Source of the DNA: Anaerolineae bacterium
GTDB lineage: Bacteria; Chloroflexota; Anaerolineae; UBA3071
Length of the DNA: 64,000 bases
Reading direction: 5' to 3'
Assembly: GCA_029907105.1 (NCBI GenBank)
Contig: JARYMM010000002.1
Coordinates: forward strand, 18,992 to 82,991
The position numbers and the translations under genes were made by a program. This document shows, piece by piece, positions 4,683 to 56,041 of this stretch (positions are counted from its first letter, which is position 1; every line of letters begins with the position of its first letter). The notes beneath the pieces were generated by a model. That model had not been told where the DNA came from, made no database searches, and was given only the letters and a program-made list of their open reading frames with translations.

Positions 4683-4702
4683 GGTGAATTCGTCTTGAGA
4701 AT

Positions 4703-4785
4703 GCGCGATACGTGATCCGTGATGCGTGTTGCGCGATTTACGATGCGGGGTTACGTTTCACGCATCACGCATTACGCATCACGCC
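4703..4785. repeat. family F4 REP-like element, largest copy, with inverted (ACGTGATCCGTGATGCGTG) and direct (ACGTTTCACGCATCACGCATTACGCATCACGCC) units able to form a long hairpin
   Basis: Lies between the radical-SAM gene start and the EF-G gene end. Confidence 0.75.
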
Positions 4786-12232: not shown

Positions 12233-12368
12233 GGAGGCGGCAGAGCATCGCGTCTGGCCAGGTGGCCTTGTAGGGCTGTCTTTCTAGCCCGCCTGGCTGC
12301 CCAGCGCAGGCCAGAGGGCCTGCCCATTCTCGCTCTGATGATCTGCAGAGGCTAGAAAGGAGATGGTG

Positions 12369-13364
12369 ATGAACGTTAAAATATCGCGCTGGCTCCCTAT
12401 GATTGTGTTGGCCTTGAGCCTGGTCATCTCGAGCGCGCCCGCCGCCGCGCAGGGCTCTACGGTGCACGTGGTACAAAGAGGCGAGACGCTGTCGCAGATC
12501 GCCCTGCGCTACGGCACCACGGTCAGCGCGCTGATGCAGGCCAACGGGCTGAGCAACGCCAACTTCATCTGGTGGGGGCAGCGGCTGCACATCCCCGGCG
12601 GCGCCGGCGCGCCGTCGGCCTCCACGCCGTCCACTGTCCAGGGCTACCACGTGGTGCAGCGAGGCGAGACGCTCTCACAGATCGCCCTGCGCTACGGCAC
12701 CACGGTCAGCGCGCTGATGCAGGCCAACGGGCTGAGCAACGCCAACTTCATCTGGTGGGGGCAGCGGCTGCACATCCCCGGCGGCGCCGGCGCGCCGTCG
12801 GCCTCCACGCCGTCCACTGTCCAGGGCTACCACGTGGTGCAGCGAGGTGAGACGCTCTCACAGATCGCCCGGCGCTACGGCACGACGATCAATGCCCTGA
12901 TGCAGGCCAACGGGCTGGGCAATGCCGATTTCATCTACGTTGGACAGCGGCTGCGCATCCCTGCCGGCGGCAGCGCGCCGGCATCCAATCCGTCCGTCTC
13001 CGCTCCGACCGGCGGCAAATGGATTGACATTGACCTGAGCAGCCAATGGTTGACAGCCTATGTGGGGGATACGGCGGTGTTCAGCACCGCGGTGAGCACG
13101 GGGCTGCCGGGCACGCCGACGCCGGTAGGACGTTACAGCATCCGCTATAAGGTGGCTTCGACGACCATGTCTGGCCCCGGCTACTACCTGCCCGGCGTGC
13201 CATGGGTGATGTCTTTCTCCAGCGGCTACACCATTCACGGCACCTACTGGCACAATAACTTTGGCCATCCCATGAGCCACGGCTGCGTGAACATGCGCGT
13301 CTCCGAGGCGCAATGGCTCTATAACTGGGCGCCCGTGGGCACGCCGGTCGTCATACACTGGTAA
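12369..13364 (+). CDS. secreted LysM-repeat (x3) L,D-transpeptidase (YkuD domain)
   Basis: Has a signal peptide, three LysM modules (VHVVQRGETLSQIA...) and a C-terminal HGCVNM catalytic motif. Confidence 0.85.
   Translation: MNVKISRWLPMIVLALSLVISSAPAAAQGSTVHVVQRGETLSQIALRYGTTVSALMQANGLSNANFIWWGQRLHIPGGAGAPSASTPSTVQGYHVVQRGETLSQIALRYGTTVSALMQANGLSNANFIWWGQRLHIPGGAGAPSASTPSTVQGYHVVQRGETLSQIARRYGTTINALMQANGLGNADFIYVGQRLRIPAGGSAPASNPSVSAPTGGKWIDIDLSSQWLTAYVGDTAVFSTAVSTGLPGTPTPVGRYSIRYKVASTTMSGPGYYLPGVPWVMSFSSGYTIHGTYWHNNFGHPMSHGCVNMRVSEAQWLYNWAPVGTPVVIHW
12465..12830 (+). repeat. near-perfect 183-bp tandem duplication (2 units plus a diverged third) inside the LysM L,D-transpeptidase gene, each unit encoding one LysM module
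   Basis: Units 12465..12647 and 12648..12830 differ at only a handful of positions. A third unit starting at 12831 is diverged. Confidence 0.9.
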
Positions 13365-14546: not shown

Positions 14547-14647
14547 ATCCTCAACCTCAAACTCGAAACCTCAAATCCCGGTCTCGTCCTCTGGCGAGTC
14601 TGGCGGGCGTAGCGGTTTTGAAGTTTGGATTTTGAGGTTTGAAGTTC
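14545..14647. repeat. heptamer-periodic palindromic element (family F1), full hairpin copy
   Basis: Left arm AAATCCT CAACCTC AAACTCG AAACCTC AAATCCC at 14545..14579. A 35-nt centre follows. The inverted right arm GTTTTGA AGTTTGG ATTTTGA GGTTTGA AGTTC at 14615..14647 ends directly at ATG 14648. Confidence 0.8.
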
Positions 14648-17113
14648 ATGTGGGATGTGTTCATTGCCGACGCTGAGCAGCCCCCGGACCCGCTCTGGGT
14701 GGCCGAGCGTCCATCCTGGCGGGAGGAGTTATTGCGCGCCTATGTGGAGGAGTTCAGTACGCCCGGCGCGCTGCTGCTGGACCCCTTTGCCCGCCATCCG
14801 GCCTTGCTGCGGGTAGCCCGGGCGACAGGGCGACGCGTCCTGGCCTCCAACTTCGACCCCCTGCCCCTGCTCCAGATCCGCCTGAGCCTCTCGCCGCCAC
14901 CGCCGCGAGCCCTGGACAGCATCGTCTCCCGCCTGGCCGACGCGCCCAAGGCGGGCAAACCCCTCTTCCGCCATCTTGACGACCTCTATCGCATCTACTG
15001 CCCGCGCTGTCAGCGTGTCCTGGCGGCCGATTACTTCGTCTGGGAAGGAGGCGTACCGGTAGAAAAGGGCTTTCATTGTGCCCGGTGTGGGGAGGAAGGC
15101 GCCGCGCCGATGACCGCCCAGGACCTGGACATCCAGGTCGCCGTGGAGGAGAAAGGCGTGACCTATTGGTGGCTGCGGCAGCGGCTGGCCGATGCGGAGA
15201 ATGAAGAGTTCGGCAAGCGGGTGGCGGAGCTTCTCGATCTGTACACGCCGCGCAACCGCTATGCTCTCGCCGAGCTGATGCTGCAGGCCGAGACTCTCTT
15301 CCTCCCCAAAGAGAAAGCGGCCCTGGAGATCATCCAGGGCCTCTGCCTGGCCTGCCTGCAACGGTGCCACTCCCTGCACAGCGAGGCCGGGCAACCCACC
15401 TTCCCCCATTCGCTGCACCGGCCGGAGCGCTTTGTGGAGCGCAACGTCTGGCGGACGTTCGAGGCCGCCTATCGCACGCTGCGAAGCTGGCCCGAGGCGC
15501 CTCCGGCCACCTGGGCGGCCAGCCTGCCGGCGTTGTTTCAACCTGTTCCTGGCCCGGACTTTGGCCCGATGCTGACCCTGCATCGTACCAGCCGCCTGCT
15601 GGTCGAGGCGTTAAGGCCATATCCCCGCCTCAGCCTCATCTGCACCGACCCGCCGCGTCCCTCCCTGGTTGCCCACACCCTGGCCTTTCTCTGGAGTGGC
15701 TGGCTTTTGGGGAGGGAAGCGACGCAGCCCTTGCGCCCGTTGCTGCGGCGGCGCACTGCGGACTGGGAGTGGTACAGCGAGGCCATGGCCGGCGTCTTCG
15801 GGGCGCTGAGCCGCCTGCTGGCCGATGGCGGGCGGTTGCTCCTGGCTTTCACCGCTGAGGAGGAGAGGCTGCTGCCGGCGCTGCTCTTGGCCGCAGCGCG
15901 GGCCGATCTGGCCCTGGAGCACAGTGTCTACCAGTTTCAGGGCGAGGGGGTTCGCGGTGAGCGCGTAACCTGCCGGCTGCTTTTCCGCCGTCATCCCCGG
16001 CCGCTTCGCCGGTCATCCGAGTCGGAAGAGGCGGTCAAACGCTGGGCGGAGGACAGCGCGCCCACATTTCAGGAAGAAGGGGCAAAGGCGGCCCGGGCGG
16101 CGCTGCGAGCTCGAGGGGAGCCGGCCTTCCCCTCCTGGCTGCAGGCGGCCATCGTCACCCACTGGGGCAGCAGTGGGCTGCTGCGAACCGTGCCGCTCCG
16201 CACCTGGTCCTTCAGGCCGCTGTCCTGGCTGATGCGCCAGGTGAAAGCGGTGATGCCGGCCGAAGGGCTGGCGCCGGGTGGGTTGCAGTGGCTGGCGCCG
16301 GGGGCGGAATCGGAAGGCAGGCCCGCTCTGGCCGCCTGTTGCTGGCTGGCCGATCCCTCGTCGGCCGCCGAGCCACTGAGCCAGCGGGTGGAACTGGCCA
16401 TGGCCGACCTGCTGCAGAGGGTCGAACCCTGGCCATGGATGGAATTGCACGATGCGCTGTGCCGCCGGTTCCGCGGCCTGTTGACGCCGGATCGCCCCTT
16501 GCTGGAGGCGTGCATCGCCTCCTACGGCCAGGAGCTGAGCACCGGCTCTTGGCAGTTGCGGCCGGAAGACCGGCCCCCGGCGCGGGCCGAAGCGCGCCGC
16601 CAGATGGTCCAGTTACTGGTGCAGACCGGGCAACGCCTGGGTTTCGACGTCTGGCTGGCGGAGGGGGAGCGACCAGGAGACAGGGAGACAAGGGGACAAG
16701 GAGACAGGGGAGAAGTCACCTTGTCACCCCCTCCCCTTGGCGCCTCCTCCCCTCTGGAAGTGGTCTGGCATGAGGGCGGCGTGCCGGCCTATGGCTTCGC
16801 TCTGAGCGACACGGCGGCGCTTGCGCCGTGGCTGGAGCCGCTGCCGCCTGCGCTGGCCGATGTTCCCCGCTACATCGTCGTGCCCGGCGGGCGCAGCGGG
16901 CTGCTGGCCTTCAAGCTGCGCTGCTGTCCCGCCTGGCGCCGCCAACTGGAGGCGCACGGTTGGATGTTCGTCAAGCAGCGTCACCTGCGCCGCCTGGCCG
17001 AGGCGGAGGACCTGGACCGCGCCGGCTGGCAGGCGCGTATCGGGCTGGACCCCATTGTGGAGCGAAGCGAGGAACAACTGGCATTATTTGAAACCACCGA
17101 TCTCCACGGATGA
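14648..17113 (+). CDS. large hypothetical protein with a degenerate N-terminal methyltransferase-like motif and a C4 zinc ribbon; very Arg/Ala/Leu-rich
   Basis: LLLDPFARHPALL resembles MTase motif I (DPFxGSGT) but lacks the glycines. Zinc ribbon CPRCQ...CARCG. 821 aa. An alternative TTG start at 14639 lies inside the repeat arm. Confidence 0.6.
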   Translation: MWDVFIADAEQPPDPLWVAERPSWREELLRAYVEEFSTPGALLLDPFARHPALLRVARATGRRVLASNFDPLPLLQIRLSLSPPPPRALDSIVSRLADAPKAGKPLFRHLDDLYRIYCPRCQRVLAADYFVWEGGVPVEKGFHCARCGEEGAAPMTAQDLDIQVAVEEKGVTYWWLRQRLADAENEEFGKRVAELLDLYTPRNRYALAELMLQAETLFLPKEKAALEIIQGLCLACLQRCHSLHSEAGQPTFPHSLHRPERFVERNVWRTFEAAYRTLRSWPEAPPATWAASLPALFQPVPGPDFGPMLTLHRTSRLLVEALRPYPRLSLICTDPPRPSLVAHTLAFLWSGWLLGREATQPLRPLLRRRTADWEWYSEAMAGVFGALSRLLADGGRLLLAFTAEEERLLPALLLAAARADLALEHSVYQFQGEGVRGERVTCRLLFRRHPRPLRRSSESEEAVKRWAEDSAPTFQEEGAKAARAALRARGEPAFPSWLQAAIVTHWGSSGLLRTVPLRTWSFRPLSWLMRQVKAVMPAEGLAPGGLQWLAPGAESEGRPALAACCWLADPSSAAEPLSQRVELAMADLLQRVEPWPWMELHDALCRRFRGLLTPDRPLLEACIASYGQELSTGSWQLRPEDRPPARAEARRQMVQLLVQTGQRLGFDVWLAEGERPGDRETRGQGDRGEVTLSPPPLGASSPLEVVWHEGGVPAYGFALSDTAALAPWLEPLPPALADVPRYIVVPGGRSGLLAFKLRCCPAWRRQLEAHGWMFVKQRHLRRLAEAEDLDRAGWQARIGLDPIVERSEEQLALFETTDLHG
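16671..16720 (+). repeat. GGAGACAAGGGGACAAGGAGACA-type repeat (family F3), in-frame inside the 824-aa gene (encodes ...ERPGDRETRGQGDRGE...)
   Basis: Shares a 20-nt identity with the reverse complement of 55831..55872. Confidence 0.7.
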
Positions 17114-19519: not shown

Positions 19520-19548
19520 TTGACAGGAATCGCAGAAGGTGTTATACT
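19520..19548 (+). promoter_or_regulatory. sigma70 promoter TTGACA-17-TATACT for the LysM/PQPC gene; ~135-nt 5'UTR
   Basis: The -35 is at 19520..19525 and the -10 at 19543..19548. Confidence 0.55.
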
Positions 19549-19688
19549 CGTCATCGAGTTCCGGCCCCAGACGAGACCTTGGGCAGGCTTGTGCAGCAGG
19601 AACCTGGGCGCTCCCTTCGGCTCTCTCCCCGTTTCGTCATGTTGCTGCGCAAGGGCCCAGGCACAGAAGACAGGCAAAGGAGGATGCC

Positions 19689-20603
19689 ATGAGACGATTG
19701 CTTTTCCTCACCCTCATCGTGGTCTTGTTGCTGGCAATGCTGCCGGTCACAGCCGCGGCCGCCCCAATGGGATCTGGATGCACCCCCCTCTACCACCGGG
19801 TGCAGCGAGGGGAGACCCTTTCCAAGATCGCTGCTCGCTATGGTGTCAGCGTATGGGCCATCGCCAGTGCCAACGGCATCAAAAACATCAATGTCGTCTA
19901 TGTTGGCCAACTGCTGGTCATCCCCTGCGCTGCGACGCCTCCGCCTTCCTGCATCCACATCGTGCAGCGCGGGGAGTGGTTGAGCCAGATCGCCCGCCGC
20001 TACGGGGTCAGCGTGTGGGCCATCGCCAGCGCCAACGGCATCTGGAATCTCAACTACATCTATCCGGGGCAGCGGCTGGTCATCCCCGGCTGCAAGCCGA
20101 CTCCGCCGCCACCGCCGCCGAAACCGCCTGCCCCGCCTTCACCGCCGCCCTGCCCACAGCCGTGTCCACAGCCTTGCCCACAGCCATGTCCACAACCCTG
20201 CCCGCAGCCCTGTCCGCCGCAGTGCAGCATCACGCCGGTGGAGGGCTTCGGCCGCGTGTGGACCCAGAACGCCACCGTGCGCCAGAAGCTGGGCTGCCCC
20301 AAAGCAGCGGAGTACTCCGTGGACGGCGCTGAGCAACAATTCCAGCAGGGTATTGTCATCTGGCGGGGGGACATGGAGAAAGTCATTGTTCTCTACCATA
20401 GTGGGCGCTGGGGCACGGAAGACGATCCGTGGAAGGCTTGCCACTGCTACCATCCCCTGATCCCCAAGCTGGGCTGGCCGACCACGGGCCGTTGGGAGGG
20501 CAGGATTTCGGTGCAGGATTTCGAGGGCGGCACCATGCTCTGGACCCCCTGCGGTGGCATCTACGTGCTCTACAACGACGGTACGTGGAAGCATTACGAC
20601 TAA
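19689..20603 (+). CDS. secreted protein: signal peptide, two LysM domains, Pro-rich linker with a (PQPC)6 repeat, and a C-terminal domain of unknown function
   Basis: Starts MRRLLFLTLIVVLLLA.... Has two (VQRGETLSKIA) LysM modules and the linker PPPPPKPPAPPSPPP-CPQPCPQPCPQPCPQPCPQPCPPQC. AAAGGAGG lies before the ATG. Confidence 0.75.
   Translation: MRRLLFLTLIVVLLLAMLPVTAAAAPMGSGCTPLYHRVQRGETLSKIAARYGVSVWAIASANGIKNINVVYVGQLLVIPCAATPPPSCIHIVQRGEWLSQIARRYGVSVWAIASANGIWNLNYIYPGQRLVIPGCKPTPPPPPPKPPAPPSPPPCPQPCPQPCPQPCPQPCPQPCPPQCSITPVEGFGRVWTQNATVRQKLGCPKAAEYSVDGAEQQFQQGIVIWRGDMEKVIVLYHSGRWGTEDDPWKACHCYHPLIPKLGWPTTGRWEGRISVQDFEGGTMLWTPCGGIYVLYNDGTWKHYD
20148..20225 (+). repeat. 12-nt tandem repeat (CCNTGYCCRCAR)x6 encoding (PQPC/CPQP)6
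   Basis: Read directly from the sequence. Confidence 0.85.
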
Positions 20604-24123: not shown

Positions 24124-26769
24124 TCAGGGAGCAAGCTCGATGGCTTTCAAGATCACATATTCACCGCGCAGAAGCCCGAAGGGGCCGCGGCGGGCGGGGA
24201 TGCGCTGGCCGTCGCTGGCCCGTTCCAGGGCGACGACGAGCCGGTAGCGGCCAGGCGGCGCGTCAGCGGGGACAGTCAGCTCGTGGCGGTCGCCCACAGG
24301 GTAATCCGTCGCCCAGAGCGAGGTGGGATAACGGCCATCCACCGGCCGGCCCGCGGCGCGGGCCACGATGCGGTCGCCTGCGTCCAGCAGTTGCAGCACC
24401 ACCAGATAGTCGTCCACGTACGGCGAGGGACGGGGACGCCAACACAGCTTGACGGGGATGACATCGCCGGGCCGCAGCCGCGTGGCCGGGCTGTAAGCTT
24501 CGAGCAGTTCGATATAGTCGAAGCGGGCCAGCGGGCGCTCGCCAGGCCTCATGGACGGCTCCTCGGGCAGGGTGATCTCCACGCCGCCCAGTTGCAGGCG
24601 ATGGCCATCGGCCACGGAGAGGCCATCTTCGGAGACCGCAGGCAGCGGTTCAGCCATGGCCGGGTCATACAGCACCAGCTCGACGCTGTACCGGCCGGGA
24701 GGCGTATCCCCAGGCACAGGCAGGCGCACAGGCTGGCGTTCAACGCCCCCCGCTGGCCAGCGGGAGGTGGTATAGAGGCTGCCCAACGGGCGCTCGTCCG
24801 GCGGCTGGCTCCAGACGCGGCCCTGGGCATCCACCAGGCGCAGCGAGGTGGCGTAGTCGGCGGCCGGAGGCTGGCGTACCTGCCAAAAGAGGGCCGTGTA
24901 CAGCGTCTGCCCGGCGGCAAGGGTGCCGCAACAGGGCGGGACGTAGAGCGTGAACAGGTCGCCGAAGGCAGCGCGGCGGGCATCGGCCGGCGGCTCAACA
25001 GCACGCTGGCGGGGCAGCACCCCCTGCACCCGCATGTTGGCCTCGCCAGTGAAGACCCGATCCTCGAACAGCTCCCCATAGGCGTCCAACAGGCCCCGGA
25101 TCACCCCCTGCGGGTCGTTGACCGTGTCGTAGATGCGGTAGTGCCACAGGCGAGGATGGGTGGCCAGGAGCAGGGCGAGCTTCTCCTTCGCCAGGTCGCC
25201 GGGCAAGGCGTAAAAGTCGGACGCCGGATCGCCCCAGCCCAGGCGGGGGTCGCCGTCAATGTGCCCTGTCTGCACGATGACCGCGCCGTCGGCGGAAGCC
25301 GCTGCTGGGGTGTAGTCGCTCAGCCGCCCGCGCCAGGCGATGGGCAACTGCAAGTAGGTCAGCAGCGCCGTGTAGCTATAGCCGGCGTTGACCAGGATGA
25401 CGTCACCGGGCCGCCACTGTTCGCTCAGCAAGCGTGCGGCGGCGCGGTGGTCGTCGCTGGCGTAGCGCGGGTCGCCCCACAGGTTGTGCAGGGAGAAGCC
25501 GGAAGCGGCGAGGATGACGGCCAGCGCGCCGACGGCCAGCGGCCGCCTCCAGCGCCGCCAGCGGAGGAGAGCCACAATGCCTGCCGCCAGGACCAGGCTG
25601 AAGGGCGGTGCGTAGGCGAAGACGTAGCGGACGTGATATAGCGGCGTGAACAAAGAAGCCAGGAAGACAAGCAGCACCGGGACGAGAGTATGGATGGCCA
25701 GGGGAAAGGAAGGAAAGGAGGGAAAGGAAGGGACGATCTCTTGCATTCCCTCCATTTCCTTCTCTTCCTTCGTTTCCCTTCTTAGAAGCCCAAGTATGTA
25801 AAGGGCAGCCGTCATGACTAAGAGCGGCCACACGCGTTGCGGTTCCACGGATTGTCCGAAGCTGAGCGCACTCCAGGTTTCCGTCAGCATGTCCCACAGC
25901 CCGGTAAAGGTGCGCCAGGGCGGCACGGGCGGGTCGGTGGCCTGCCGCCAGGCGATGGGCAGCCAGGGTGCGTACAGGAGCAGAACGGCGGCCTGGGCGA
26001 GGAACCAGGCCCGAAGCCGGAACCTGGAACCTGAAACCTGGAACCCTCCGGGCCGAGCGCCTCGGCCGACGCCTCGGCGGAGGCCCTCAGGGCGAAGCCT
26101 GGAACACGCCACTACGATGACCCATAGATTAAGGGCGACGAGGAGGAAGGCGAAGTAGTAGAGAACGTAGAGGCCAGCGGCAGCAGCGAGGACGTAAAGG
26201 ATGAGTGCGCAGCGGTCAGGGGTCAAGGGATAGGGGTTAGGGGAGGTTCCCTTTGGCTCAGAACCTGAAACCATCTGGGGGCTCACGAAGTGGATGATGC
26301 ACCGAAGACAGATCAGCCCCAGCACCGCGCCGAGGGTGTACATGCGCACCTCTTGCGCGTACCAGACGTGGAAGGGGGAGATGGCCGTGAGCGCTGCCGC
26401 CAAAAGCGCCGTCGGCTCATCGTACAGGCGGCGGCCCAGGGTGTAGATGAGCGGGATCAGCATCATGCCGAAGACGAGGGAGAGGAGCGCAGCAGCGAAC
26501 TCCAGGCCGTGGCCGTCGGCGTCGGCATGGCCGGTGGGATAGCCGAAGAGAAGCAGCCAGCCGCGCAGCAGCAGATAGTAGCCGGGCGGATGGATGTCGC
26601 CGGCGGTGTGGGCGATGAGGGCGGGCACGGGCTTGCCCGCCAGGTGCACGCTGACCGTCTCGTCGTACCAGAGGCTCTGCGCGCCGAGCCGGTGCAGGCG
26701 CAGGCCAAAGGCGGCCAGCAGGATGAGCAGCAGGATCAGGCGAGAGCGAGCAGCGGCATGGCGAACCAT
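24124..26769 (-). CDS. GT39/GT83-family (ArnT/PMT-like) membrane glycosyltransferase with a large C-terminal extracytoplasmic domain
   Basis: N-terminus LILLLILLAAFGLRLHRLGAQSLWYDE...DIHPPGYYLLLRGW. Multiple transmembrane helices. 881 aa. Contains an in-frame F1 repeat insertion. Confidence 0.65.
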   Translation of the reverse strand: MVRHAAARSRLILLLILLAAFGLRLHRLGAQSLWYDETVSVHLAGKPVPALIAHTAGDIHPPGYYLLLRGWLLLFGYPTGHADADGHGLEFAAALLSLVFGMMLIPLIYTLGRRLYDEPTALLAAALTAISPFHVWYAQEVRMYTLGAVLGLICLRCIIHFVSPQMVSGSEPKGTSPNPYPLTPDRCALILYVLAAAAGLYVLYYFAFLLVALNLWVIVVACSRLRPEGLRRGVGRGARPGGFQVSGSRFRLRAWFLAQAAVLLLYAPWLPIAWRQATDPPVPPWRTFTGLWDMLTETWSALSFGQSVEPQRVWPLLVMTAALYILGLLRRETKEEKEMEGMQEIVPSFPSFPSFPLAIHTLVPVLLVFLASLFTPLYHVRYVFAYAPPFSLVLAAGIVALLRWRRWRRPLAVGALAVILAASGFSLHNLWGDPRYASDDHRAAARLLSEQWRPGDVILVNAGYSYTALLTYLQLPIAWRGRLSDYTPAAASADGAVIVQTGHIDGDPRLGWGDPASDFYALPGDLAKEKLALLLATHPRLWHYRIYDTVNDPQGVIRGLLDAYGELFEDRVFTGEANMRVQGVLPRQRAVEPPADARRAAFGDLFTLYVPPCCGTLAAGQTLYTALFWQVRQPPAADYATSLRLVDAQGRVWSQPPDERPLGSLYTTSRWPAGGVERQPVRLPVPGDTPPGRYSVELVLYDPAMAEPLPAVSEDGLSVADGHRLQLGGVEITLPEEPSMRPGERPLARFDYIELLEAYSPATRLRPGDVIPVKLCWRPRPSPYVDDYLVVLQLLDAGDRIVARAAGRPVDGRYPTSLWATDYPVGDRHELTVPADAPPGRYRLVVALERASDGQRIPARRGPFGLLRGEYVILKAIELAP
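26001..26107. repeat. family F1 element (half hairpin plus conserved 43-bp core) inserted in-frame in the GT39 gene
   Basis: Heptamers CGGAACC TGGAACC TGAAACC TGGAACC are followed by the core CGGGCCGAGCGCCTCGGCCGACGCCTCGGCGGAGGCCCTCAG. The core is identical at 42/43 positions to 53820..53862. It encodes ...LRPEGLRRGVGRGARPGGFQVSGSRFRLRAW... in the glycosyltransferase. Confidence 0.8.
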
Positions 26770-26855: not shown

Positions 26856-26894
26856 GAAAATGTCACCCTGAGCGCAGCGAAGGGTGACATTTTC
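26856..26894. repeat. perfect 14-bp inverted repeat GAAAATGTCACCCT-(11)-AGGGTGACATTTTC, related to the interior of family F2
   Basis: The loop GAGCGCAGCGA matches CCTGAGCGCAGCGAA in the 17199 element. Confidence 0.6.
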
Positions 26895-26962
26895 AACTTC
26901 AGGGTGGCCCGTTGGGCCATGACGACTGCCTCCAAGTTGGCTGCACAAGTCTATACACAAAT

Positions 26963-29111: not shown

Positions 29112-29897
29112 ATGCGAAAAGACATCGTCAGACAATGGGTCAATGTGCTGGCATTGGTCGTGACCTTCGTTATCAACTCGTTGGCCGCGGCCCTGCCCCT
29201 GGGCGGGCTGACCACGGGAGAGATATCCGATCTCTTCCCTGTCTACTTCACGCCCGCCAACTATGTGTTCAGGATCTGGTTCCTGATCTACGCGGCACTG
29301 TTTGGTTTCATCGTCTACCAGGCTCTCCCTTCGCAACGGGAGAACCCACGTCTGCGCCGCGTCGGCTACCTGTTTGTCCTCAGTGCTCTGGCCAATACCG
29401 TCTGGCTGCTGCTGTGGCACTTCTGGCGCTTCCCGCTCAGCCTGGTGGCCATGATCGTGCTGCTGCTGACGCTGATCGTCATCTACCTGCGCCTGGGCAT
29501 CGGCCGCACCAGGGTCAGCACGGCCGAGACCTGGCTGGTGCGCGTGCCCTTCAGCATTTACCTGGGCTGGATCACCGTGGCCACCATCGCCAACGCCACC
29601 ACAGTCCTGCAGTATTTCAACTGGAGCGGCTGGGGCCTTAGCCCGCAGGTCTGGACGGTGATCATGCTGGCCGCGGCCACGGTCATCGGCGCGCTGGTGA
29701 GCCTGAGGCGGGGCGATGCGGCTTACATGCTCGTCCTCGTCTGGGCCTTCGCCGGCATCGCCGTGAAGCATGCGGCCACGCCCGTGGTGGCCATCGCCGC
29801 CTGGGTGGCCGCGGCGCTGGCCGCCGTCATGCTCGTTGTGGGCGTGCTGCTGAAAAGGGCGAGAGGCGGGGGACGAGAGGCGAGAAGCGAGGCGTGA
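29112..29897 (+). CDS. TspO/MBR-like tryptophan-rich membrane protein with a C-terminal extension
   Basis: Five or more transmembrane helices and high Trp content. FTPANYVFRIWFLIYAALFG and YLGWITVATIAN resemble TspO TM1 and TM5. AGGAGA ribosome-binding site; the start follows the carH stop by 2 nt. Confidence 0.5.
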   Translation: MRKDIVRQWVNVLALVVTFVINSLAAALPLGGLTTGEISDLFPVYFTPANYVFRIWFLIYAALFGFIVYQALPSQRENPRLRRVGYLFVLSALANTVWLLLWHFWRFPLSLVAMIVLLLTLIVIYLRLGIGRTRVSTAETWLVRVPFSIYLGWITVATIANATTVLQYFNWSGWGLSPQVWTVIMLAAATVIGALVSLRRGDAAYMLVLVWAFAGIAVKHAATPVVAIAAWVAAALAAVMLVVGVLLKRARGGGREARSEA

Positions 29898-30035
29898 GAG
29901 GCGAGGGGCAAAGATGAGCATCGTCCTGCTGGAAGGCCAGCGGGGTGTGCCGCGCTGCCTGCGGGAACTGGGCTCACCTTTCGTTTCCCGGAAGCGGAGA
30001 GGGCCCTGTGCGACGTGCTTGGAGCAGCGTGACAG

Positions 30036-44995: not shown

Positions 44996-47900
44996 TCAAG
45001 GCCTGGACGGGCGCTGACGCGCCGCCTTCAGCTCCCGCACGCGCCCACGGCGATCAATCTGGAAACGCCGCACGTAGCGGGGCGGCAACTCGAAAGCAAA
45101 ACGTGAAGGGCCGCGCAGGAAACCATCGCCCCGATCGCGGGTGGAACAGAGATAGAGCCGTTCCCTGGCCCGCGTCATGCCCACGTAAAACACCCGCCGT
45201 TCCTCGGCCAGCGCGGCTTCCTGCCCCTCCTGCAGCGTCGTCCACAGCGGCAGGTTCTCTTCCTCCACGCCGATGATGATGACCACCGGAAACTCGGTGC
45301 CCTTGGCGTTATGCAGGGTCATCAACGTCACCCGGTCTGGCCGGGTCTCGTGGGCGAAGGTGTCCACGTTGACCACCAGCGCCTGATAGTCAAGAAAGGC
45401 GGAAAGGGAACGGTCTGCGCTGAAACGCAGGAAGGCGGCCACCTGCTGCTGGAACGCCTCCCGCAGGCGATCCCAGGCTTCGTCCACCAGCGGTGGCGGT
45501 TCCTCCGCCTCCAGCCGTGCGGCAAGCAAGGTCAGCCTCTCCTCCGCCTGTGGCCGCAGCTCCCGCACCCGTGCCAGACCCACGATCTCCCCCGAACGCT
45601 GCACGACCCGTCGCGCCGCATTGAGCAGGGCCGCCATCGGGATCATTCCGCCATCCGCATTCCGCTTTTCGCAATGCAGCTCCAGCAGTCCCAGGACGGC
45701 CAACGGCAACAACTCGGGCAGAGCACGCAACGCCGTCTGCCAGCGGTTCTCGGCCAGCAAACGCTCGAAGAGCGCCGCTACCTGGCGCACATCCCCGGCC
45801 GCGCGGTGCTCCACCCGCTCTCCCAGGCCGAAATAGCGCAGCAGGCTCTCCAGACTGTAGCTCGCCGGCGCATCCGGCCCATCGCGCAGCAGGCGGCGGG
45901 CCAGCGTCAACGTGTCCAGGTACGGGTTGCGAAAGCCCCGTCCCAGCAACCGCCCGGCCTCGCGGTCGAGAAAGCGATTGTCGAAGCCTTCGACATTGTG
46001 CCCGACCACGGTGTCGGTGCCGACGTAGGCCAGGAAGCGGGGCAGCACCCTCTCGATGCCCTCGGCGTCCCTGACGTCTTCCCAGCGCAATCCGTGAACC
46101 TGGGTGGCCGCTTTGGGAATGAAACCCTGTTCCGGCCGCACCCTGGCGTAGAAGGGTTCCCCGGCCGGCCTGCCTCCCCGCATGGCCATCCCACCGATCT
46201 CGATGATCTCATCACGTCGGGCATTGGTGCCCGTGGTCTCCAGATCGTAGACGACGAAAGAACCTTCGCCCAGCCGCTCGTGGGCGGCCAGCAGGTCCTG
46301 GGCGAAACGGTAGGCAACCACGCTGCACGGAGTTTCGGGTTCCAGGTTCCGGGTTTCAGGCTCCAGGCTCCAGGCTTCGGGTTCTGAGGCCGGGCTTCTG
46401 GCCTCGAGTCTTAAACCCCCGGCTTCGGGGATGAGTTCAATGTCCAACGGGCGGCCCAGGTAGTGCTGCAGGGTGTGCTCCAGGATGGCCGCCGCGCAGG
46501 CGCCGTCGAGGGTAGCCGGCGCAGTCAGCCGGAGGCGGGCACCCGCCTGGAGTTGGTCGCGCAGCCGTCCAGCCTCCTCGGAAAACGCGCATCCGCTGGC
46601 CCAGGTGCGCCATTTCTGCCATTCTCCCCGCTCAAAGGGACTGCGCCGCTGCTCCAGCAGGGTGAACAGCTTTTCCATGATGACGTCTACGGCCTCCGCG
46701 CTGGCCGGTTTCAACTCCTCCTCGAACAGGCGCAGAAAGCCTTGCAGATTGGCGCGGGTGAGCGGGCTGAGCTCGGGGAAGGCCTGGGCACGGCGGGCCA
46801 GATCGGCCAACCCCACGGCGTGGAAGTCCGCCAGCCTTTGCAACTGCATCACCGTCAGCTCGTCGGCCAGCGTCTGCGGGAAGTTGAGCGCTTCGAGGAT
46901 GGCCTGGTCGTCGGCCAGCGAGCGAATGAGGTGCAGGTAGCGCACCACTTCCCGCGCCCCCGGTTGCTCGAAGAAGTTTTTCTTGCGCACCCGCTGCAGC
47001 GGGATCTGCTCTTGTCCCAGGTATCCCTCCAGGTCGTCGGCCAGTTGATGGGTGCGATAAAAGATGGCGATGTCCCCGCAGGCATAGCCATGCCCGTCGG
47101 CCAGGCGGCGGATGAGACGGGTGATCAGGCGATGCTCCTGTGCGACATCGGCCAGCAGATAGTGATGGATGGGAGCCCCGCGGCCCCGGCTGGTGTGCAG
47201 AAACCGCCGGCGCTGCGGCGACCGCTGGCGGGCGATCATGTTCTGGGCAGCATAGAGAATGGTCTCCGTGCTGCGATAACACTCGGTGAGTTCGATCACC
47301 CGCGGGTGATAGCGGGCGATGAACTCGTCCACCAACTGCGGCTGCGCCCCTCGCCATTCGTAGATGGACTGGTCGTCGTCGGCCACGGCCATGACGTCGG
47401 CCCCTGGCGGGCACAGCAGGGTGAGCAGTTCGTATTGGGCGCGGTTGATGTCCTGATACTCATCCACCAGCACGTGCGGCAGCAGGCGTTGCAACTCCTG
47501 GCGCACCTCCGCCCGCTCCCGCAGCAGGCGCACGGTTTCGCCGATGAGATCGTCGAAGTCGAGGGCCCGGCGGGCACGCAAACCTTCGGCATAATCGGCA
47601 GCCAATTCGGCCCACAGTGGATCCCCGACGCTTTCGCCCGAGGCAGCTCGCGCCAGATCGCGCAACGCCGCTTTCTCGTAGCTGACGAAATCCCGCAGGC
47701 GATAGACCGGGTACAGCTCCTGGCTCAGGTTGCGCCGCGTGATGACGCTCCGCCAGATGGCGTCCTGCAGTACTTCGTCGGCGACGATGAAATCGGGCAG
47801 CAGGCCGATGGCCGCGCCATGCCGGCGCAGGATGCGCAGGCAGGCGGCGTGAAAGGTGTGGATCCAGATGTCTGCTGCCGCCGGCCCCAGCAGGTGTTCC

Positions 47901-48130
47901 AGGCGCGAGCGCATCTCCTCAGCGGCTTTGTTGGTAAAGGTCACGCAGAGCAACCGCGTGGGGGGCACCTTTCGCTCGACGACGAGATAGGCCACACGGG
48001 AGGTCAGGGTACGGGTCTTGCCGCTCCCCGGGCCGGCCAGCACCAACACCGGACCGGGCTCGAGTGTCACTGCCTGCCGTTGGCTGTCGTTCAGGCTTGC
48101 CAGAATCTCTTCCGTCGTGTGCAGGGTCAT
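44996..48130 (-). CDS. UvrD/PcrA-family SF1 helicase with an inserted DnaQ-type (DEDDh) 3'-5' exonuclease domain
   Basis: N-terminal VLVLAGPGSGKTRTL (Walker A). Middle segment VVYDLETTG...HNVEGFD...HRAAGD has exonuclease motifs I-III. C-terminal MTLHNAKGTEFP...VGMTRAR (UvrD C-domain). Start at MTLHTTEE (ATG 48130). Contains an in-frame F1 heptamer insertion. Confidence 0.8.
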   Translation of the reverse strand: MTLHTTEEILASLNDSQRQAVTLEPGPVLVLAGPGSGKTRTLTSRVAYLVVERKVPPTRLLCVTFTNKAAEEMRSRLEHLLGPAAADIWIHTFHAACLRILRRHGAAIGLLPDFIVADEVLQDAIWRSVITRRNLSQELYPVYRLRDFVSYEKAALRDLARAASGESVGDPLWAELAADYAEGLRARRALDFDDLIGETVRLLRERAEVRQELQRLLPHVLVDEYQDINRAQYELLTLLCPPGADVMAVADDDQSIYEWRGAQPQLVDEFIARYHPRVIELTECYRSTETILYAAQNMIARQRSPQRRRFLHTSRGRGAPIHHYLLADVAQEHRLITRLIRRLADGHGYACGDIAIFYRTHQLADDLEGYLGQEQIPLQRVRKKNFFEQPGAREVVRYLHLIRSLADDQAILEALNFPQTLADELTVMQLQRLADFHAVGLADLARRAQAFPELSPLTRANLQGFLRLFEEELKPASAEAVDVIMEKLFTLLEQRRSPFERGEWQKWRTWASGCAFSEEAGRLRDQLQAGARLRLTAPATLDGACAAAILEHTLQHYLGRPLDIELIPEAGGLRLEARSPASEPEAWSLEPETRNLEPETPCSVVAYRFAQDLLAAHERLGEGSFVVYDLETTGTNARRDEIIEIGGMAMRGGRPAGEPFYARVRPEQGFIPKAATQVHGLRWEDVRDAEGIERVLPRFLAYVGTDTVVGHNVEGFDNRFLDREAGRLLGRGFRNPYLDTLTLARRLLRDGPDAPASYSLESLLRYFGLGERVEHRAAGDVRQVAALFERLLAENRWQTALRALPELLPLAVLGLLELHCEKRNADGGMIPMAALLNAARRVVQRSGEIVGLARVRELRPQAEERLTLLAARLEAEEPPPLVDEAWDRLREAFQQQVAAFLRFSADRSLSAFLDYQALVVNVDTFAHETRPDRVTLMTLHNAKGTEFPVVIIIGVEEENLPLWTTLQEGQEAALAEERRVFYVGMTRARERLYLCSTRDRGDGFLRGPSRFAFELPPRYVRRFQIDRRGRVRELKAARQRPSRP
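46331..46432. repeat. family F1 heptamer array (about 14 consecutive 7-nt units: GGTTCCA GGTTCCG GGTTTCA GGCTCCA GGCTCCA GGCTTCG ...) in-frame inside the helicase gene
   Basis: Encodes ...ARSPASEPEAWSLEPETRNLEPETP... between the helicase and exonuclease domains. Confidence 0.8.
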
Positions 48131-48179
48131 GATCAGGTGTCCACCGCCTCGTGCGGTTGCCCGGCTTGCTCTATGTTCT

Positions 48180-48207
48180 ATTATAGCATACTCCTGGCGT
48201 AAGTCAA
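48180..48207 (-). promoter_or_regulatory. promoter TTGACT-16-TATAAT (TGc extended -10) for the helicase-exonuclease gene
   Basis: Plus-strand ATTATA at 48180..48185 and AGTCAA at 48202..48207. Confidence 0.5.
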
Positions 48208-48276
48208 GGGGTTTTTTGAAACGAGTTTCGATCGTTGAGGCTTGTGCGCCATCCTTGCACAGGTCTGGCCTCCAAC

Positions 48277-48305
48277 TTGACAAATATCAAGGGACATGCT
48301 ACAAT
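48277..48305 (+). promoter_or_regulatory. consensus sigma70 promoter TTGACA-17-TACAAT for the perR-led oxidative-stress operon
   Basis: The -35 is at 48277..48282 and the -10 at 48300..48305. The imperfect dyad TTAGAATGGTTATCGTTTAA (48314..48333) over the transcript start is a possible autoregulatory box. Confidence 0.6.
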
Positions 48306-52907: not shown

Positions 52908-53498
52908 ATGATCGCACGTGTGGGCAAGGAAGCGCCGGATTTTGAGACCAATGCCTTTGTGGACGGAGGCTTTAAGAACATCAAGCTGTCGGACTATCGC
53001 GGCCAGTGGGTGGTGCTCTGCTTCTACCCCGGCGACTTCACCTTCGTTTGACCGACGGAACTGACGGCAGTTGCCGCCAGGTATCCGGAGCTGAAGGCGT
53101 TGGGCGTCGAGGTGCTGGCCATGAGCGTGGACAGCGTCTTCGTTCACAAGGTCTGGCAGGAAGAAGAGCTGTCCAGGATGATCGAGGGGGGAGTTCCCTA
53201 TCCCATGCTCTCCGACCGGGGCGGGCGCATCGGCACCGTCTACGGAGTCTACGACGAGGCCGCTGGTGTGGACATTCGGGGCCGTTTCCTGATTGACCCC
53301 GATGGCGTGATCCAGGCCATGGAGGTCCTGACACCGTCTGTGGGCCGCAACCCGGACGAGCTGGTCCGCCAGGTCAAGGCGTATCAGCATGTGCGGGAAA
53401 CGGGCGAAGTCACCCCCTCCGGCTGGACACCAGGCCAACCCACCCTCAAACCAGGTCCTGGTCTGGTGGGCAAGGTCTGGAAGGTGTGGAAGCCCTGA
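52908..53498 (+). CDS. AhpC/Prx1-type peroxiredoxin with in-frame TGA at the peroxidatic cysteine ([14 protein letters not shown]); candidate selenoperoxiredoxin with no resolving Cys
   Basis: ATG 52908 is preceded by AAGGAGGT. ORFs 52785..53051 and 53100..53498 share a frame across TGA 53049..53051. A hairpin lies 13 nt downstream. Confidence 0.65.
53049..53051 (+). other. in-frame UGA, putative selenocysteine codon
   Basis: Replaces the Cys codon of the universal peroxiredoxin motif DFTFVCPTE. Confidence 0.6.
53065..53076 (+). promoter_or_regulatory. hairpin CGGC-AGTT-GCCG, putative bacterial SECIS apical stem-loop
   Basis: Lies 13 nt 3' of the UGA. Loop context GCAGTTGC is shared with 39395..39408. 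Confidence 0.4.
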
Positions 53499-53736: not shown

Positions 53737-53756
53737 GACCTGATCAGTGCATGGAA

Positions 53757-53909
53757 GGGTTTCAGGTTTCAGGTTCCAGGTTCCCGGTTTCCGGACCGAA
53801 CCTGAAACCTGAAACCCTTCGGGCTGAGCGCCTCGGCCGACGCCTCGGCGGAGGCCCTCAGAGCTTGCCCTGAGTGAAGCGAAGGGGCGAAGCCTTTGAA
53901 TCTGGAACC
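53757..53909. repeat. family F1 element, most complete copy: 38-nt heptamer arm (GGGTTTC AGGTTTC AGGTTCC AGGTTCC CGGTTTC CGG), 4-nt loop, inverted arm, then the conserved 43-bp core and tail; it acts as an intergenic hairpin/terminator between convergent operons
   Basis: Arms at 53757..53794 and 53799..53817. The core at 53820..53862 is 42/43 identical to 26050..26092. The tail GAAGCCT..GGAAC is shared with 26096..26105. The metalloprotease stop and last ~15 codons lie inside the element. Confidence 0.85.
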
Positions 53910-56041
53910 GCAGAGGGCGGTCGGATCTCGAAGGTATAAGATGCCTCTTCCGTGGTCACCGGCGCCAGCGCGCTGACCACCAATACGGCCTTTCTCCCCG
54001 TCTGCCCCAGGCCCTTGATGGGCAACTGCCCGCATCCCGTATCGTCTATCGTCATGCGCTGCACGCTGAGGCTGAGGAGGCCCTGCTCGATGACCTGCAC
54101 CAGCCAGCGCTGCGGCAGGCGACCGTCAGTCAGCACCCAGCCTTCGGTTTGCCAGTCTCCCTCCCCGCTCTCGCCGTCATCGAAAAAACCCAGCGCAGGG
54201 ATGGCGATATCGTCCACGAACCAGCCGGGGTAGTTCACCGCATCGTCGGTGACGTACTCGAAACGCACCAGCACCTCCTGCCCGACATACGGGCTCAAGT
54301 CCATCCGCTCCTTCACCCACTCCGCCTCTGCCGATGTTGGCGTTTGGATTTTGGTTTTTGGATTTTGAGCTCCGGACTTCCCTGTATAGCCGACGCCGAA
54401 AGCGTTGCCCACCGGATTGTAGTCGCTGCTGTGCTCTCCTTCCAGAATGTGCCAGGTGGCCCCGCCATCGGTGGAGACCTCCACGTAACCGTAGTCGTAC
54501 CCTTCTTCGAGGTCGTACCAGAGCCAGAACTCCAGCGTGGCCTGGCTGACCTCGCTGAGGTCGAAGGCATGGGTCAGGCGGGTGTCGCTATCGTCGGCGC
54601 GGTGCGCCCACCAGGCGAAACGGCCGCTGTGCGCGGCGGTGGCTGCCAGCCGTGTCTCCGTTGCTCCGCAAAAGTCAATCACCACATCTCCCCGCCCGCT
54701 CAGCTCGAAGTAGTCGGCAGCATACTGGTGGACGGTCGTCCTTTCGCTGACAGGGTAGCTGCGATAACGGGCCTCCAGGGCCACCGGGCGGGGATTGTCC
54801 CGCTCGTAGCCGTAACGGCCATCCTCCAGCCTGGGCCTGTCCAGAAGGTTGGCGATCACCCAGTCGGCGAAGACGTCATCGAAGCGCAGGTCATAGCCTG
54901 CAGCAGCCAGTGCCTCATCGAAGCCGGCCGGCCCGTTGGCCGGCGAGGCCACCACGGCTTGCGTCAGCTCTTCGCCGAAGCGGTCGAGGAAGTAGCTCAT
55001 GAAAAGATAGGCGTTGCCATAGTGGTAGGCATTCAACTCCGGATCGTCGGTCCAGGTGGTGAGCTGCGTGTCCGGCTCCTGGCTGAAGACCACATCTGCC
55101 CCGCCGCGGGAGAAGCCGTTCAGCTCCGTGGCCAGCTCTGAAAGCCCCTCGTTGACCCAGGTCTCCTCGTTGCGGTCGTTGGCCCAATGGATCATGTGCT
55201 GGAACTCGTGGGCCAGCGTGCCATCGTAGAAGGCGGTCCCCGGCGGGTTGTTCTCCAGGTTGATGTAGAAGATCTCCCGCTCGTTGGAGTAGGGGTTGGC
55301 CAGGCGGGAGAACTCATCGGCAGAGGAGAAGTAACCGGCCACGCTGTCGCCCAGGTTGGTGGCGTTCAGGATGGTCAGATGCACATCGTTGTCCACGCCG
55401 GGCGACCATTCGGAGCCGAAGAAGGCGCGGTTGGTGGGGTAAGTCCGCTCCTCGAAGCGCCGCGCCGAGCGCTCCAGGTCGTCCAGGTCCACGTCCACCC
55501 CCTTCTCCACCCACATGTAGACGTGCGGCAGCTTCACCAGCAGCTCCGCTTCGATCTGGAAGTGCTCTTCCGTGTCCACGTTGCCCAGCCAGAAAGTCTC
55601 CACATCGCCCACCTCGTAGTGGGGCGGGGTGGCGTTGACCACCACGGGGATCTCGCCGGCGTGGTGGCGCAGGCGCAAGGCCAGGTCGCGCAGGTCCCGC
55701 GTGGGCAACACGGCCTGCGCCAGGTGTTCCTCGGTGCTGGGCGCGGGTGTGGCCATGGCCTTCGCGGTGGGTGTCGGCGCCGGCGTATCTGTGACGAGAG
55801 GGGGAGACGGGGAGAGGGGGAGACCTTCTTCCTGTCCCCTTGTCTCCTTGTCCCCTTGTCCCCCTGTCTCAGAAGGCGTGGGCGTGCGTGTGGGCGTCGG
55901 TATCGCTGTCGGCGTCGGCGGCTGACAGGAGACGAGCAGCGAGGTCATCAGGCAAACGGCTGCCAGGCAGCAGCAGGCGAGGATGACCAATGTGACAAGG
56001 AGGATGATGAGATTACGGTTGGTGGTGCTCATTGATGCCAT
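53858..56041 (-). CDS. secreted/membrane-anchored zinc metalloprotease (HExxH; InhA/M6-like) with a Pro/Thr-rich linker
   Basis: Has HEFQHMIHWAND...NEGLSE (HExxH plus downstream Glu). N-terminal transmembrane anchor. Linker TPTAIPTPTRTPTPSE. 727 aa. Confidence 0.65.
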   Translation of the reverse strand: MASMSTTNRNLIILLVTLVILACCCLAAVCLMTSLLVSCQPPTPTAIPTPTRTPTPSETGGQGDKETRGQEEGLPLSPSPPLVTDTPAPTPTAKAMATPAPSTEEHLAQAVLPTRDLRDLALRLRHHAGEIPVVVNATPPHYEVGDVETFWLGNVDTEEHFQIEAELLVKLPHVYMWVEKGVDVDLDDLERSARRFEERTYPTNRAFFGSEWSPGVDNDVHLTILNATNLGDSVAGYFSSADEFSRLANPYSNEREIFYINLENNPPGTAFYDGTLAHEFQHMIHWANDRNEETWVNEGLSELATELNGFSRGGADVVFSQEPDTQLTTWTDDPELNAYHYGNAYLFMSYFLDRFGEELTQAVVASPANGPAGFDEALAAAGYDLRFDDVFADWVIANLLDRPRLEDGRYGYERDNPRPVALEARYRSYPVSERTTVHQYAADYFELSGRGDVVIDFCGATETRLAATAAHSGRFAWWAHRADDSDTRLTHAFDLSEVSQATLEFWLWYDLEEGYDYGYVEVSTDGGATWHILEGEHSSDYNPVGNAFGVGYTGKSGAQNPKTKIQTPTSAEAEWVKERMDLSPYVGQEVLVRFEYVTDDAVNYPGWFVDDIAIPALGFFDDGESGEGDWQTEGWVLTDGRLPQRWLVQVIEQGLLSLSVQRMTIDDTGCGQLPIKGLGQTGRKAVLVVSALAPVTTEEASYTFEIRPPSAVPDSKASPLRFTQGKL
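54339..54375. repeat. family F1-like heptamer stretch (GGCGTTT GGATTTT GGTTTTT GGATTTT GAGCTCC) in-frame inside the metalloprotease gene
   Basis: Encodes the AQNPKTKIQTPTS segment. Confidence 0.7.
55801..55872. repeat. family F3 repeat (reverse complement GACAAGGGGACAAGGAGACA...) in-frame inside the metalloprotease gene
   Basis: Encodes SETGGQGDKETRGQEEG. It pairs with 16671..16720, which encodes ETRGQGDRGE. Confidence 0.7.

Follow-up and report, generated by a model that had tools for sequence, protein, structure and literature searches.

An in-frame palindromic repeat in a loop of a putative GT-C glycosyltransferase gene of an Anaerolineae bacterium

A repeat-encoded segment in a membrane protein gene

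We analysed 64,000 nucleotides (nt) of the genome of an Anaerolineae bacterium (GenBank assembly GCA_029907105.1, contig JARYMM010000002.1, positions 18,992 to 82,991 of the forward strand), a stretch referred to below as the window. Its minus strand carries a gene for a putative GT-C membrane glycosyltransferase, and within this gene lies a 31-residue segment whose DNA recurs elsewhere in the window as part of a palindromic repeat (Table 1). All 93 nt of the insert are repeat-derived, comprising one arm of a GGTTYCA heptanucleotide array, a hairpin core, and a short far-side remnant (GGCGAAGCC..TGGAAC). The original prediction, made from the sequence alone, had attributed the whole segment to a repeat half-arm plus a 43-bp core, and in this it was right.

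The similarity between the two copies is far beyond chance. Positions 26027-26093 match 53798-53864 of the plus strand over 67 nt with 94% identity, 41 of the 43 core positions agree (26049-26091 against 53820-53862), and a 36-mer, GAGCGCCTCGGCCGACGCCTCGGCGGAGGCCCTCAG, is exact at both sites (the second at 53826-53861), with 0 matches in 100 shuffles. The heptamer part, for which Tandem Repeats Finder (TRF) gives a period of 7 and 3.9 copies, shows 91% complementarity to the second copy's other arm (53756-53789). Heptamers of the GGTTYCA/GAACCTG family are found at 10 sites in the window, where 0.31 would be expected.

The second copy covers 149 nt (53752-53900) and consists of three consecutive hairpins, with a folding energy of -53.2 kcal/mol and a z-score of -7.9; the third hairpin is absent from the genic copy. 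It is flanked by a small plus-strand open reading frame (ORF, 53389-53736) and by a minus-strand InhA-like gene with a MAM domain (53858..56041), whose last ~14 codons and TGA stop (53858-53860) are supplied by the palindromic element. The core does recur at 53820..53862, as had been claimed, but the site is intergenic only in part, given its overlap with the end of the InhA-like ORF.

The InhA-like gene also holds arrays of other kinds. One heptamer array (54325-54380) falls inside the MAM domain match, and an 8-mer array (55796-55868) is found near the N-terminus. Arrays of 8 nt (GACAAGGA / GGGGACAAGGAGA) at 16671-16754, within an 824-aa ORF that has no Pfam match, are 74% complementary over 78 nt to 55793-55870 in the InhA-like gene, and both arrays are in frame (..GDRETRGQGDRGE.. 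and ..GGQGDKETRGQEEG..).

The boundaries of the insertion can be placed tentatively. Between two GGCTTCG direct repeats in the gene is an 81-nt block, the deletion of which leaves ...VVACSRLRAWFLAQ... with the ORF intact, resembling the minimal loops of short homologues. As direct 7-nt repeats are expected within a heptamer array anyway, GGCTTCG is only suggestive as an insertion boundary.

Table 1. Features of the glycosyltransferase gene and of the second repeat copy (window coordinates)
Feature	Position	Strand	Description	Basis or remark
Host gene	24124..26769	-	Putative 881-aa GT-C fold membrane glycosyltransferase, PMT_2-like	ORF, Pfam, homologues, AlphaFold 2, Foldseek, Ka/Ks
Insert	26005..26097	-	93 nt, residues 225-255, LRPEGLRRGVGRGARPGGFQVSGSRFRLRAW; loop between transmembrane helices 6 and 7 (TM6-TM7)	ORF translation, AlphaFold 2
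Hairpin core	26053..26091		GC-rich imperfect palindrome, 15-bp stem with two symmetric mismatches, loop CGCC	DNA/RNA folding
Apex 26-mer	26059-26084		GCCTCGGCCGACGCCTCGGCGGAGGC	Within hairpin core
Heptanucleotide array	26014..26047	-	GGTTYCA on coding strand, translated GFQVSGSRFR	TRF, inverted repeats; shared with loci L001 and L002
Candidate inserted block	26012..26099	-	81 nt (27 codons) between 7-nt direct repeats GGCTTCG	Repeats at 26093-26099 and 26012-26018
Expected tryptic peptide			GARPGGFQVSGSR	Read-through of the insert
Variable loop 1	26185..26290	-	Residues ~163-187; GGTTTCA-type and CCTNACC heptamers	pLDDT <50 at 166-181
Variable loop 3	25695..25790	-	Residues ~331-356, RETKEEKEMEGMQEIVPSFPSFPSFP; complete GGAAAGGAAGG.../...CCTTCCTTTCC palindrome, in frame	pLDDT <50 at 334-349
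Second copy, part 1	53756..53816		Inverted GGTTTCA / TGAAACC heptamer arrays, ~25-bp hairpin	TRF, folding
Second copy, part 2	53820..53862		43-bp core hairpin	CTCAG stem provides TGA stop of ORF 53858..56041 (-)
Second copy, part 3	53863..53900		Third small hairpin, loop motif CCTGAGTGAAGCGAAGG	Absent from genic copy

The host protein and its variable loops

A sequence that NCBI lists as "glycosyltransferase family 39 protein", from an Anaerolineae metagenome-assembled genome (MAG; P0001), matches the host protein with 100% identity. The Pfam match to PMT_2 (PF13231) is marginal, scoring 27.3 bits against a cut-off of 26.1 and covering residues 60-146 only, although many homologues carry a precomputed PF13231 label; NCBIfam gives only weak matches below threshold. 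An AlphaFold 2 model built from a 27-sequence alignment (predicted local distance difference test, pLDDT, 86.4; predicted template modelling score, pTM, 0.82) has 11 transmembrane (TM) helices and a beta-rich C-terminal domain of ~450 aa. Foldseek matches the model to ArnT (5ezm, E 1.4e-7, TMt 0.56), STT3, Pmt4, AftD and ALG9/12, with an identity to any solved GT-C enzyme of ~12% at most. Residues D36-E37 are invariant across the 27 aligned sequences; GT-C enzymes such as ArnT and PMT have such an acidic motif in the first outside loop. By the model, the protein has one contiguous GT-C fold. The designation "GT39/ArnT-like" of the original prediction is established only as far as the GT-C fold, together with the marginal PMT_2 match; GT39 itself is the depositor's label.

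The original prediction had offered as an alternative that the long ORF is two genes wrongly joined by the element, and since high-GC genomes often contain long spurious ORFs, a repeat in the middle of a long ORF would be in keeping with this. We reject it, and consider it almost certainly wrong. Of the 1411 homologues retrieved, the best 120 are mostly 800-1000 aa long (range 659-1012), and most of them cover 95-100% of the query. Motifs conserved in the family alignment flank the insert on both sides, and TM6 and TM7 belong to one modelled GT-C fold that matches ArnT and STT3. The GC content of third codon positions is 0.82 across the entire ORF, and the ratio of nonsynonymous to synonymous substitution rates (Ka/Ks) outside the loops is 0.21 against each of the two closest orthologous loci (L001 and L002), with the same value on both sides of the insert. 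The gene looks single, intact and functional, and from these sequence and model data we infer that its product is made and works with the insert in place.

As the original prediction had it, the insert falls between two transmembrane segments, the model placing it between helices 206-225 and 247-278. Residues with a pLDDT below 50 are limited to three stretches (166-181, 235-246 and 334-349), and precisely these are the three regions in which the family alignment is hypervariable, so that the insert appears to occupy a structurally permissive site of its host protein. The loop that contains it has nine Lys and Arg residues against one Asp or Glu. Counting helices from an N-in start, which the positively charged N-terminus indicates, puts the invariant D36-E37 in the first outside loop and all three variable loops on the cytoplasmic side, with the RWRRWRR loop on the same side as the insert-bearing one, and the conserved motifs YDETVS, PPVPPWR and PLYHVRY on the opposite, periplasmic side. 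The three disordered loops are therefore predicted to be cytoplasmic from TM parity and charge. The palindrome of variable loop 3 has a fold z-score of -3.1.

The closest ortholog (P0002, locus L001) comes from an independent assembly (ENA ERZ4756919). It is 85% identical and syntenic, flanked by a zinc-dependent alcohol dehydrogenase gene and, at the opposite end, by a MerR/B12-binding regulator. Its nucleotide sequence, ...GGCTTTGCCCTGAG/GCGCAGCCCGAAGGCTTCCAGGTTTCAGG..., has the outer stem and the heptamers as in the window, minus the central 27 nt (nine codons), the missing stretch being flanked by ...GCCCTGAG/GCGCAGCCCGAAGG...; in place of the full hairpin it has CCCTGAGGCGCAGCCCGAAGG, which is related to a motif, CCTGAGNGNAGCGAAGG, that also occurs in the window. 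Further along, L001 carries 21 additional nt (TCGTCGT x3). The window gene and L001 differ by six indels, every one of them in the three loops. In the outgroup L002 (P0003, 75% identical) the loop holds heptamers only, and the 3' end of the array is identical to that of the window. Since L002 has a pure heptamer array with the same 3' end, the loop already held an array in the ancestor shared by the three closest orthologs and the palindrome arrived later, so only the hairpin part would be lineage-specific. Consistently, the GLRRGVGRG peptide is found in just one of the 120 closest homologues, namely the query. The two window copies differ by 6%, while the synonymous divergence (Ks) from L001 is 0.24; this low divergence between the copies favours recent copying or homogenisation in the window genome.

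Comparison with L001 also bears on whether the locus was assembled correctly. The source is a MAG contig, P0001 is from a single contig, and repeats are classic points of mis-assembly, so a metagenomic mis-join or collapse across the repeat could be imagined. We regard this as very improbable, given that the reading frame is exactly preserved and that the independent L001 has the same flanks, outer stem and heptamers at the same codon positions, with synteny on both sides.

Across the family, the TM6-TM7 loop varies widely in length and content. In a set of 95 homologues the anchors YYFAFLL and PPVPPWR are separated by 45 to 163 aa (median 62, query 69), the loops share no homology in sequence, and in minimal homologues an insert is entirely lacking; the alignment to orthologs that had been proposed as a check thus finds both relatives that lack any insert and a closest syntenic ortholog that lacks the 27-nt apex. 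Many loops are periodic over seven residues (e.g. KSQIANR, HEWRIAN, SAVSRQP, FRVPSSR), and wherever the DNA was fetched these corresponded to heptanucleotide arrays. The loop of P0019 is encoded by 14.7 copies of NNCGAAT, a heptamer that occurs in 12.7 copies intergenically 5 kb away. In P0016 the arrays, of GCAAATC and TCCAGCT, extend to all three loops, and 9 of the 12 period-7 TRF rows of its 22.6-kb locus, some of them overlapping, lie inside the glycosyltransferase gene. In other lineages the same position is occupied by LARSGDRPEQ (7 homologues) or ETGFLRRNPVS (5 homologues). The longest anchor distance, 163 aa, belongs to P0050 (L053:10718-11060), in which the TM6-TM7 loop consists of eight tandem 42-nt palindromic units (CTGGCTCGGTCGGGAGACCGGCCAG...), read as (LARSGDRPEQGGAE)x8; a search of L053 and of all other loci for further copies of this LARSGDRPEQ unit detected none outside the gene. 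The TM6-TM7 loop appears to be a recurrent landing site, colonised independently by different repeats.

Could the segment instead be a native, ancestral loop that resembles the second copy through composition or convergence? In many homologues the loop is indeed about as long, and the two closest orthologs share the heptamer part. We nevertheless give this explanation little credence, considering the 67-nt match at 94% identity with none expected by chance, the lack of homology between the loops of different homologues, the restriction of the hairpin peptide to this one protein among 120, and the presence of the same 26-mer in unrelated genes and intergenic sites of other genomes.

The hairpin in other genomes and its known counterparts

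The 26-nt apex of the hairpin, GCCTCGGCCGACGCCTCGGCGGAGGC, was found at 9 loci in species-representative genomes, mostly Anaerolineae or other Chloroflexota MAGs, and on 40 metagenome contigs. Species-representative genomes have one or two exact 26-mers each, compared with two copies per 64 kb in the window. A scan of viral contigs for the 26-mer returned no matches and thus no sign of a phage vehicle, and Rfam searches of the window and 20 related loci gave no RNA family at the element, detecting only two tRNAs elsewhere.

About 28 of the metagenome matches (L012-L049; Ga0209162, Ga0209227, Ga0197142 and others) form one family with two subfamilies. Their element has several hairpins, measures ~170-230 nt and ends sharply at its 3' side after CCGTCGGGC, and its longest hairpin, an extended nested palindrome, has the 26-mer at its apex. 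Some copies lie just upstream of the start codons of glmS and iscS. In the remaining matches the apex usually has CTGAGC/CCTCAG flanks and is often set in heptamer or decamer arrays that differ by genome. Two 26-mer matches were set aside, from Kiritimatiellaeota (L004/L048) and a delta-proteobacterium (L011), which have no CTGAG/CTCAG flanks and look like chance low-complexity coding sequence. A further match is on a 10.9-kb contig labelled Acidovorax sp. MAG (L005 / L034, NZ_JADHVT010000148.1), where the hairpin is central in an inverted CACTGAG/CTCAGTG heptamer-array palindrome. This contig is binned as a betaproteobacterium, and either the repeat system is not limited to Chloroflexota or the contig is mis-binned.

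Around half of the non-redundant copies elsewhere are genic, and so the description of the element as an intergenic one fits the mostly intergenic second copy of the window, but not the element at large. In other Chloroflexota MAGs or metagenomes the hairpin is in frame inside the C-terminal domain of MurT (MurT_C; L016), with peptide LRPEGLRRGVGRGAQPEGF and with frame and flanks as in the window gene, inside phosphoenolpyruvate (PEP) carboxylase (PEPcase; L010), inside ArgC/LysY (Semialdhyde_dh domain; L007) and inside a Mur ligase (Mur_ligase_M; L008/L039). The alignment of the L007 protein to PDB 5eio is split at the hairpin, with ~30 unaligned query residues there, ~25 more than in the solved protein. 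The hairpin is also found between the ATPase and Mrr_cat domains of one protein (L028), at an S1-domain protein (L003), either within its N-terminus or upstream of it, and at or before the start of the domain match in a GXGXG-domain protein (L021) and at a permease N-terminus (L025). A unit of ~60 nt, GGCTTCGCC-CTGAGG...CCTCAGC-CCGAAGGGTTCC, occurs as well in MurT of another genome, without long arrays. Of the six frames of the core, two are interrupted by TGA; each of the four open ones occurs in the genic copies found elsewhere. Heptamers in the TGAAACC orientation have TGA in every frame from three units on, which is why the window gene carries one arm only, in the GGTTTCA orientation.

It is likely that this dispersed palindromic repeat was copied in frame into a disordered loop, where it is read through and passively tolerated. 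A 38-43-bp GC-rich imperfect palindrome, nested in a GGTTYCA array, would have been copied into the TM6-TM7 loop of the GT-C gene and would be translated as an Arg/Gly-rich disordered linker of 27-31 residues. Its persistence would be due to a purely selective filter, by which the length would have to be a multiple of three (27 nt relative to the nearest ortholog, 81 nt between the GGCTTCG repeats), the frame one of the four in which the hairpin is free of stops, and the heptamers in the only orientation without TGA. The site would have to be one such as this cytoplasmic loop, remote from the periplasmic catalytic face and free in length and sequence throughout the family, and the net positive charge of the loop would agree with the positive-inside rule. 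As a copying route, we prefer an exchange between heptamer arrays by gene conversion or template switching, since the target loop had an array of this family beforehand and array sequence borders the hairpin on either side. The other route would be transposition in trans of a discrete unit, for which the ~60-nt unit without long arrays in another genome's MurT leaves room. The suggestion of the original prediction that such an element can be tolerated as a protein-coding insertion gains support from the ortholog that has no apex, the near-unique peptide and the low-confidence loop in which it lies.

Several points weigh against this reading. Either the window lineage may have gained the 27 nt or L001 may have lost the apex by deletion, and since both have the outer stem, part of the element is probably older than the separation of the two. 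The assignment of the loop to the cytoplasm follows from parity and charge, and translation of the insert is deduced from the integrity of the ORF and purifying selection on its flanks. No transposase was seen in the window, the ORFs of which were not all scanned for one, and we found no bracketing terminal inverted repeats, no unambiguous target-site duplication and no parent insertion sequence. There are two copies only within the 64-kb window.

A different explanation is that the mRNA hairpin or the Arg-rich peptide has been selected for a function, such as pausing for the insertion of TM6 and TM7, mRNA stability, or topology. The hairpin of the genic copy is strong as RNA (-30.8 kcal/mol, against -16.5 kcal/mol as DNA), the peptide contributes eight Arg residues to a loop predicted to be cytoplasmic, and the identity of the 26-nt apex in several genomes with differing flanks hints at sequence constraint. 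On the other hand, the fold z-score of the genic copy (-1.5 to -1.9) is unremarkable for such a GC content, the closest ortholog has no apex, minimal homologues have no insert, and unrelated repeats occupy the same loop in different lineages, which fits better with tolerance than with function. Exaptation of this kind is, in our view, unlikely.

Palindromic repeats within genes and in frame are already established for the Rickettsia palindromic elements (RPEs), and have been reported for repetitive extragenic palindromes (REPs), enterobacterial repetitive intergenic consensus (ERIC) sequences and several MITEs, or miniature inverted-repeat transposable elements (PMC10969869, PMC3733652). RPEs are short dispersed palindromes found both between genes and in frame in unrelated housekeeping genes (Ogata et al. 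2000, as summarised in PMC10969869, PMC3733652). The element described here resembles them in that the same repeat occurs between genes and in frame inside unrelated intact genes (GT-C, MurT, PEP carboxylase, ArgC and Mur ligase), at a site tolerated by the fold and with the host ORF intact. It differs in belonging to free-living Chloroflexota (Anaerolineae) with 65% GC, in being shorter (38-43 bp), in being nested in heptanucleotide arrays, which RPEs lack, and in encoding no conserved long peptide, four different frames being used. The sequence looks unrelated to RPEs, no RPE consensus having been compared, and homology is very unlikely by phylum and GC content. By analogy, the element would work like RPEs, and we do not class it as a member of their sequence family.

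With REPs and bacterial interspersed mosaic elements (BIMEs), intragenic REPs among them (Di Nocera et al. 2013, PMC3733652), it shares a GC-rich imperfect palindrome of 20-40 bp that is often 3' of convergent genes, sometimes inside ORFs, and that sometimes gives a stop codon to a flanking ORF, as is the case here for the TGA of ORF 53858..56041. Unlike REPs, it has no GTAG/CGTC tag at the end of the palindrome; the ends read CTGAGC... and ...CCCTCAG, and the only CGTC in the palindrome is in the loop region on the reverse strand. No REP-associated tyrosine transposase (RAYT) gene was identified in the 64 kb, of which the ORFs were not all scanned, and the copy number is apparently modest. 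ERIC, BOX and the Anabaena MITEs are bacterial MITEs that make in-frame fusions (reviewed in PMC10969869). The present element is likewise a small non-autonomous repeat that can be read through when inside genes, but no clear terminal inverted repeats were seen to bracket it, and both heptamer arms of the second copy are on one side of the core.

Heptanucleotide arrays also have a precedent. Cyanobacterial short tandemly repeated repetitive (STRR) sequences are heptanucleotide repeats reportedly described by Mazel et al. in 1990. They likewise are dispersed tandem 7-nt units, often in inverted arrays and occasionally tolerated in functional genes, and differ in their unit sequences (STRR1-3) and in phylum, so that the arrays described here would be an analogue and not a member. 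In contrast to STRR sequences, the present arrays are predicted to be translated as 7-residue periodic peptides and have a conserved hairpin at or near their centre. Insertion of STRR repeats into RNase P RNA is mentioned in PMC2858038.

In-frame palindromic repeats being known, what is added here is the repeated colonisation of three loops of one protein family and an apex shared across genomes in several housekeeping genes. Full-text searches of the accessible literature, including for the core and related motifs, found no paper on this hairpin or on heptamer arrays of Chloroflexi. We tentatively raise the possibility, which we hold to be less probable than its opposite, of an undescribed repeat system of Anaerolineae and other Chloroflexota, in which the invariant 26-nt apex is set in genome-specific arrays or longer nested palindromes. 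Active copying, through array conversion or an enzyme that recognises hairpins, would bring it into housekeeping genes at a rate high enough to make it a real source of loop and linker evolution. If so, free-living, high-GC bacteria would have their own counterpart of the Rickettsia RPEs, and the cytoplasmic loops of membrane proteins would be preferred landing sites. In-frame palindromic colonisation of genes extends beyond reduced intracellular genomes such as those of Rickettsia to free-living, GC-rich Chloroflexota. The glycosyltransferase family may be seen as a natural experiment on insertion tolerance and on filtering by frame and orientation, with three predicted cytoplasmic loops and different repeats in different lineages. 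Such inserts inflate the apparent divergence of proteins, yield low-complexity "domains", and can mislead gene callers and homology searches in MAGs.

Other repeats in the window

Arrays of period 7 are detected by TRF at more than 12 sites in the window, with inverted pairs at 250-313, 4701-4784 and 53758-53816; the genome holds several heptamer families. The first of these pairs (250-313, plus strand, ORF 2-808) is an inverted heptamer hairpin (GGTTTCA x4 / CGAAACC x4) in frame in a predicted KsgA/RsmA rRNA dimethyltransferase (Pfam RrnaAD). It encodes LVSRCTLQVSGPLETRNANPET, directly before the conserved VVANLPYYIT, and at this site the protein has an excess of 11 residues in the alignment to B. 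subtilis KsgA. The reverse arm reads CGAAACC instead of TGAAACC and therefore introduces no stop codons. In-frame heptamer arrays are also present in ORF 44996-48283 (minus strand), which encodes a 1095-aa predicted UvrD-helicase/RNase_T fusion; one, of the GGTTCCA family (46332-46384), encodes EPEAWSLEPETRNLEPET in the linker that precedes the exonuclease domain, and the other (45644-45673) has the unit CATTCCG. Further arrays, at gene ends or in intergenic sequence, are found at 2709-2743, 4701-4784, 14606-14647, 29858-29909 and 60018-60158, and units in such arrays include ATCACGC, ATGCGTG/TCACGCA (inverted), GTTTTGA, GGCGAGA and CAAAGCT/TTTGAAC.

Just upstream of the glycosyltransferase gene, the divergent promoter region contains a perfect hairpin with a 13-bp stem, GAAAATGTCACCC-TGAGCGCAGCGAA-GGGTGACATTTTC (26856-26895). 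The motif CCTGAGNGNAGCGAAGG has three occurrences in the window (also at 17292 and 53869), compared with 0.27 expected. Three tandem 183-nt repeats at 12465-13013 are 97% and 74% identical, with weaker related copies at 19793-20107; these fall within ORFs 12363-13364 and 19539-20603, have the appearance of repeated protein domains, and are unrelated to the hairpin element.

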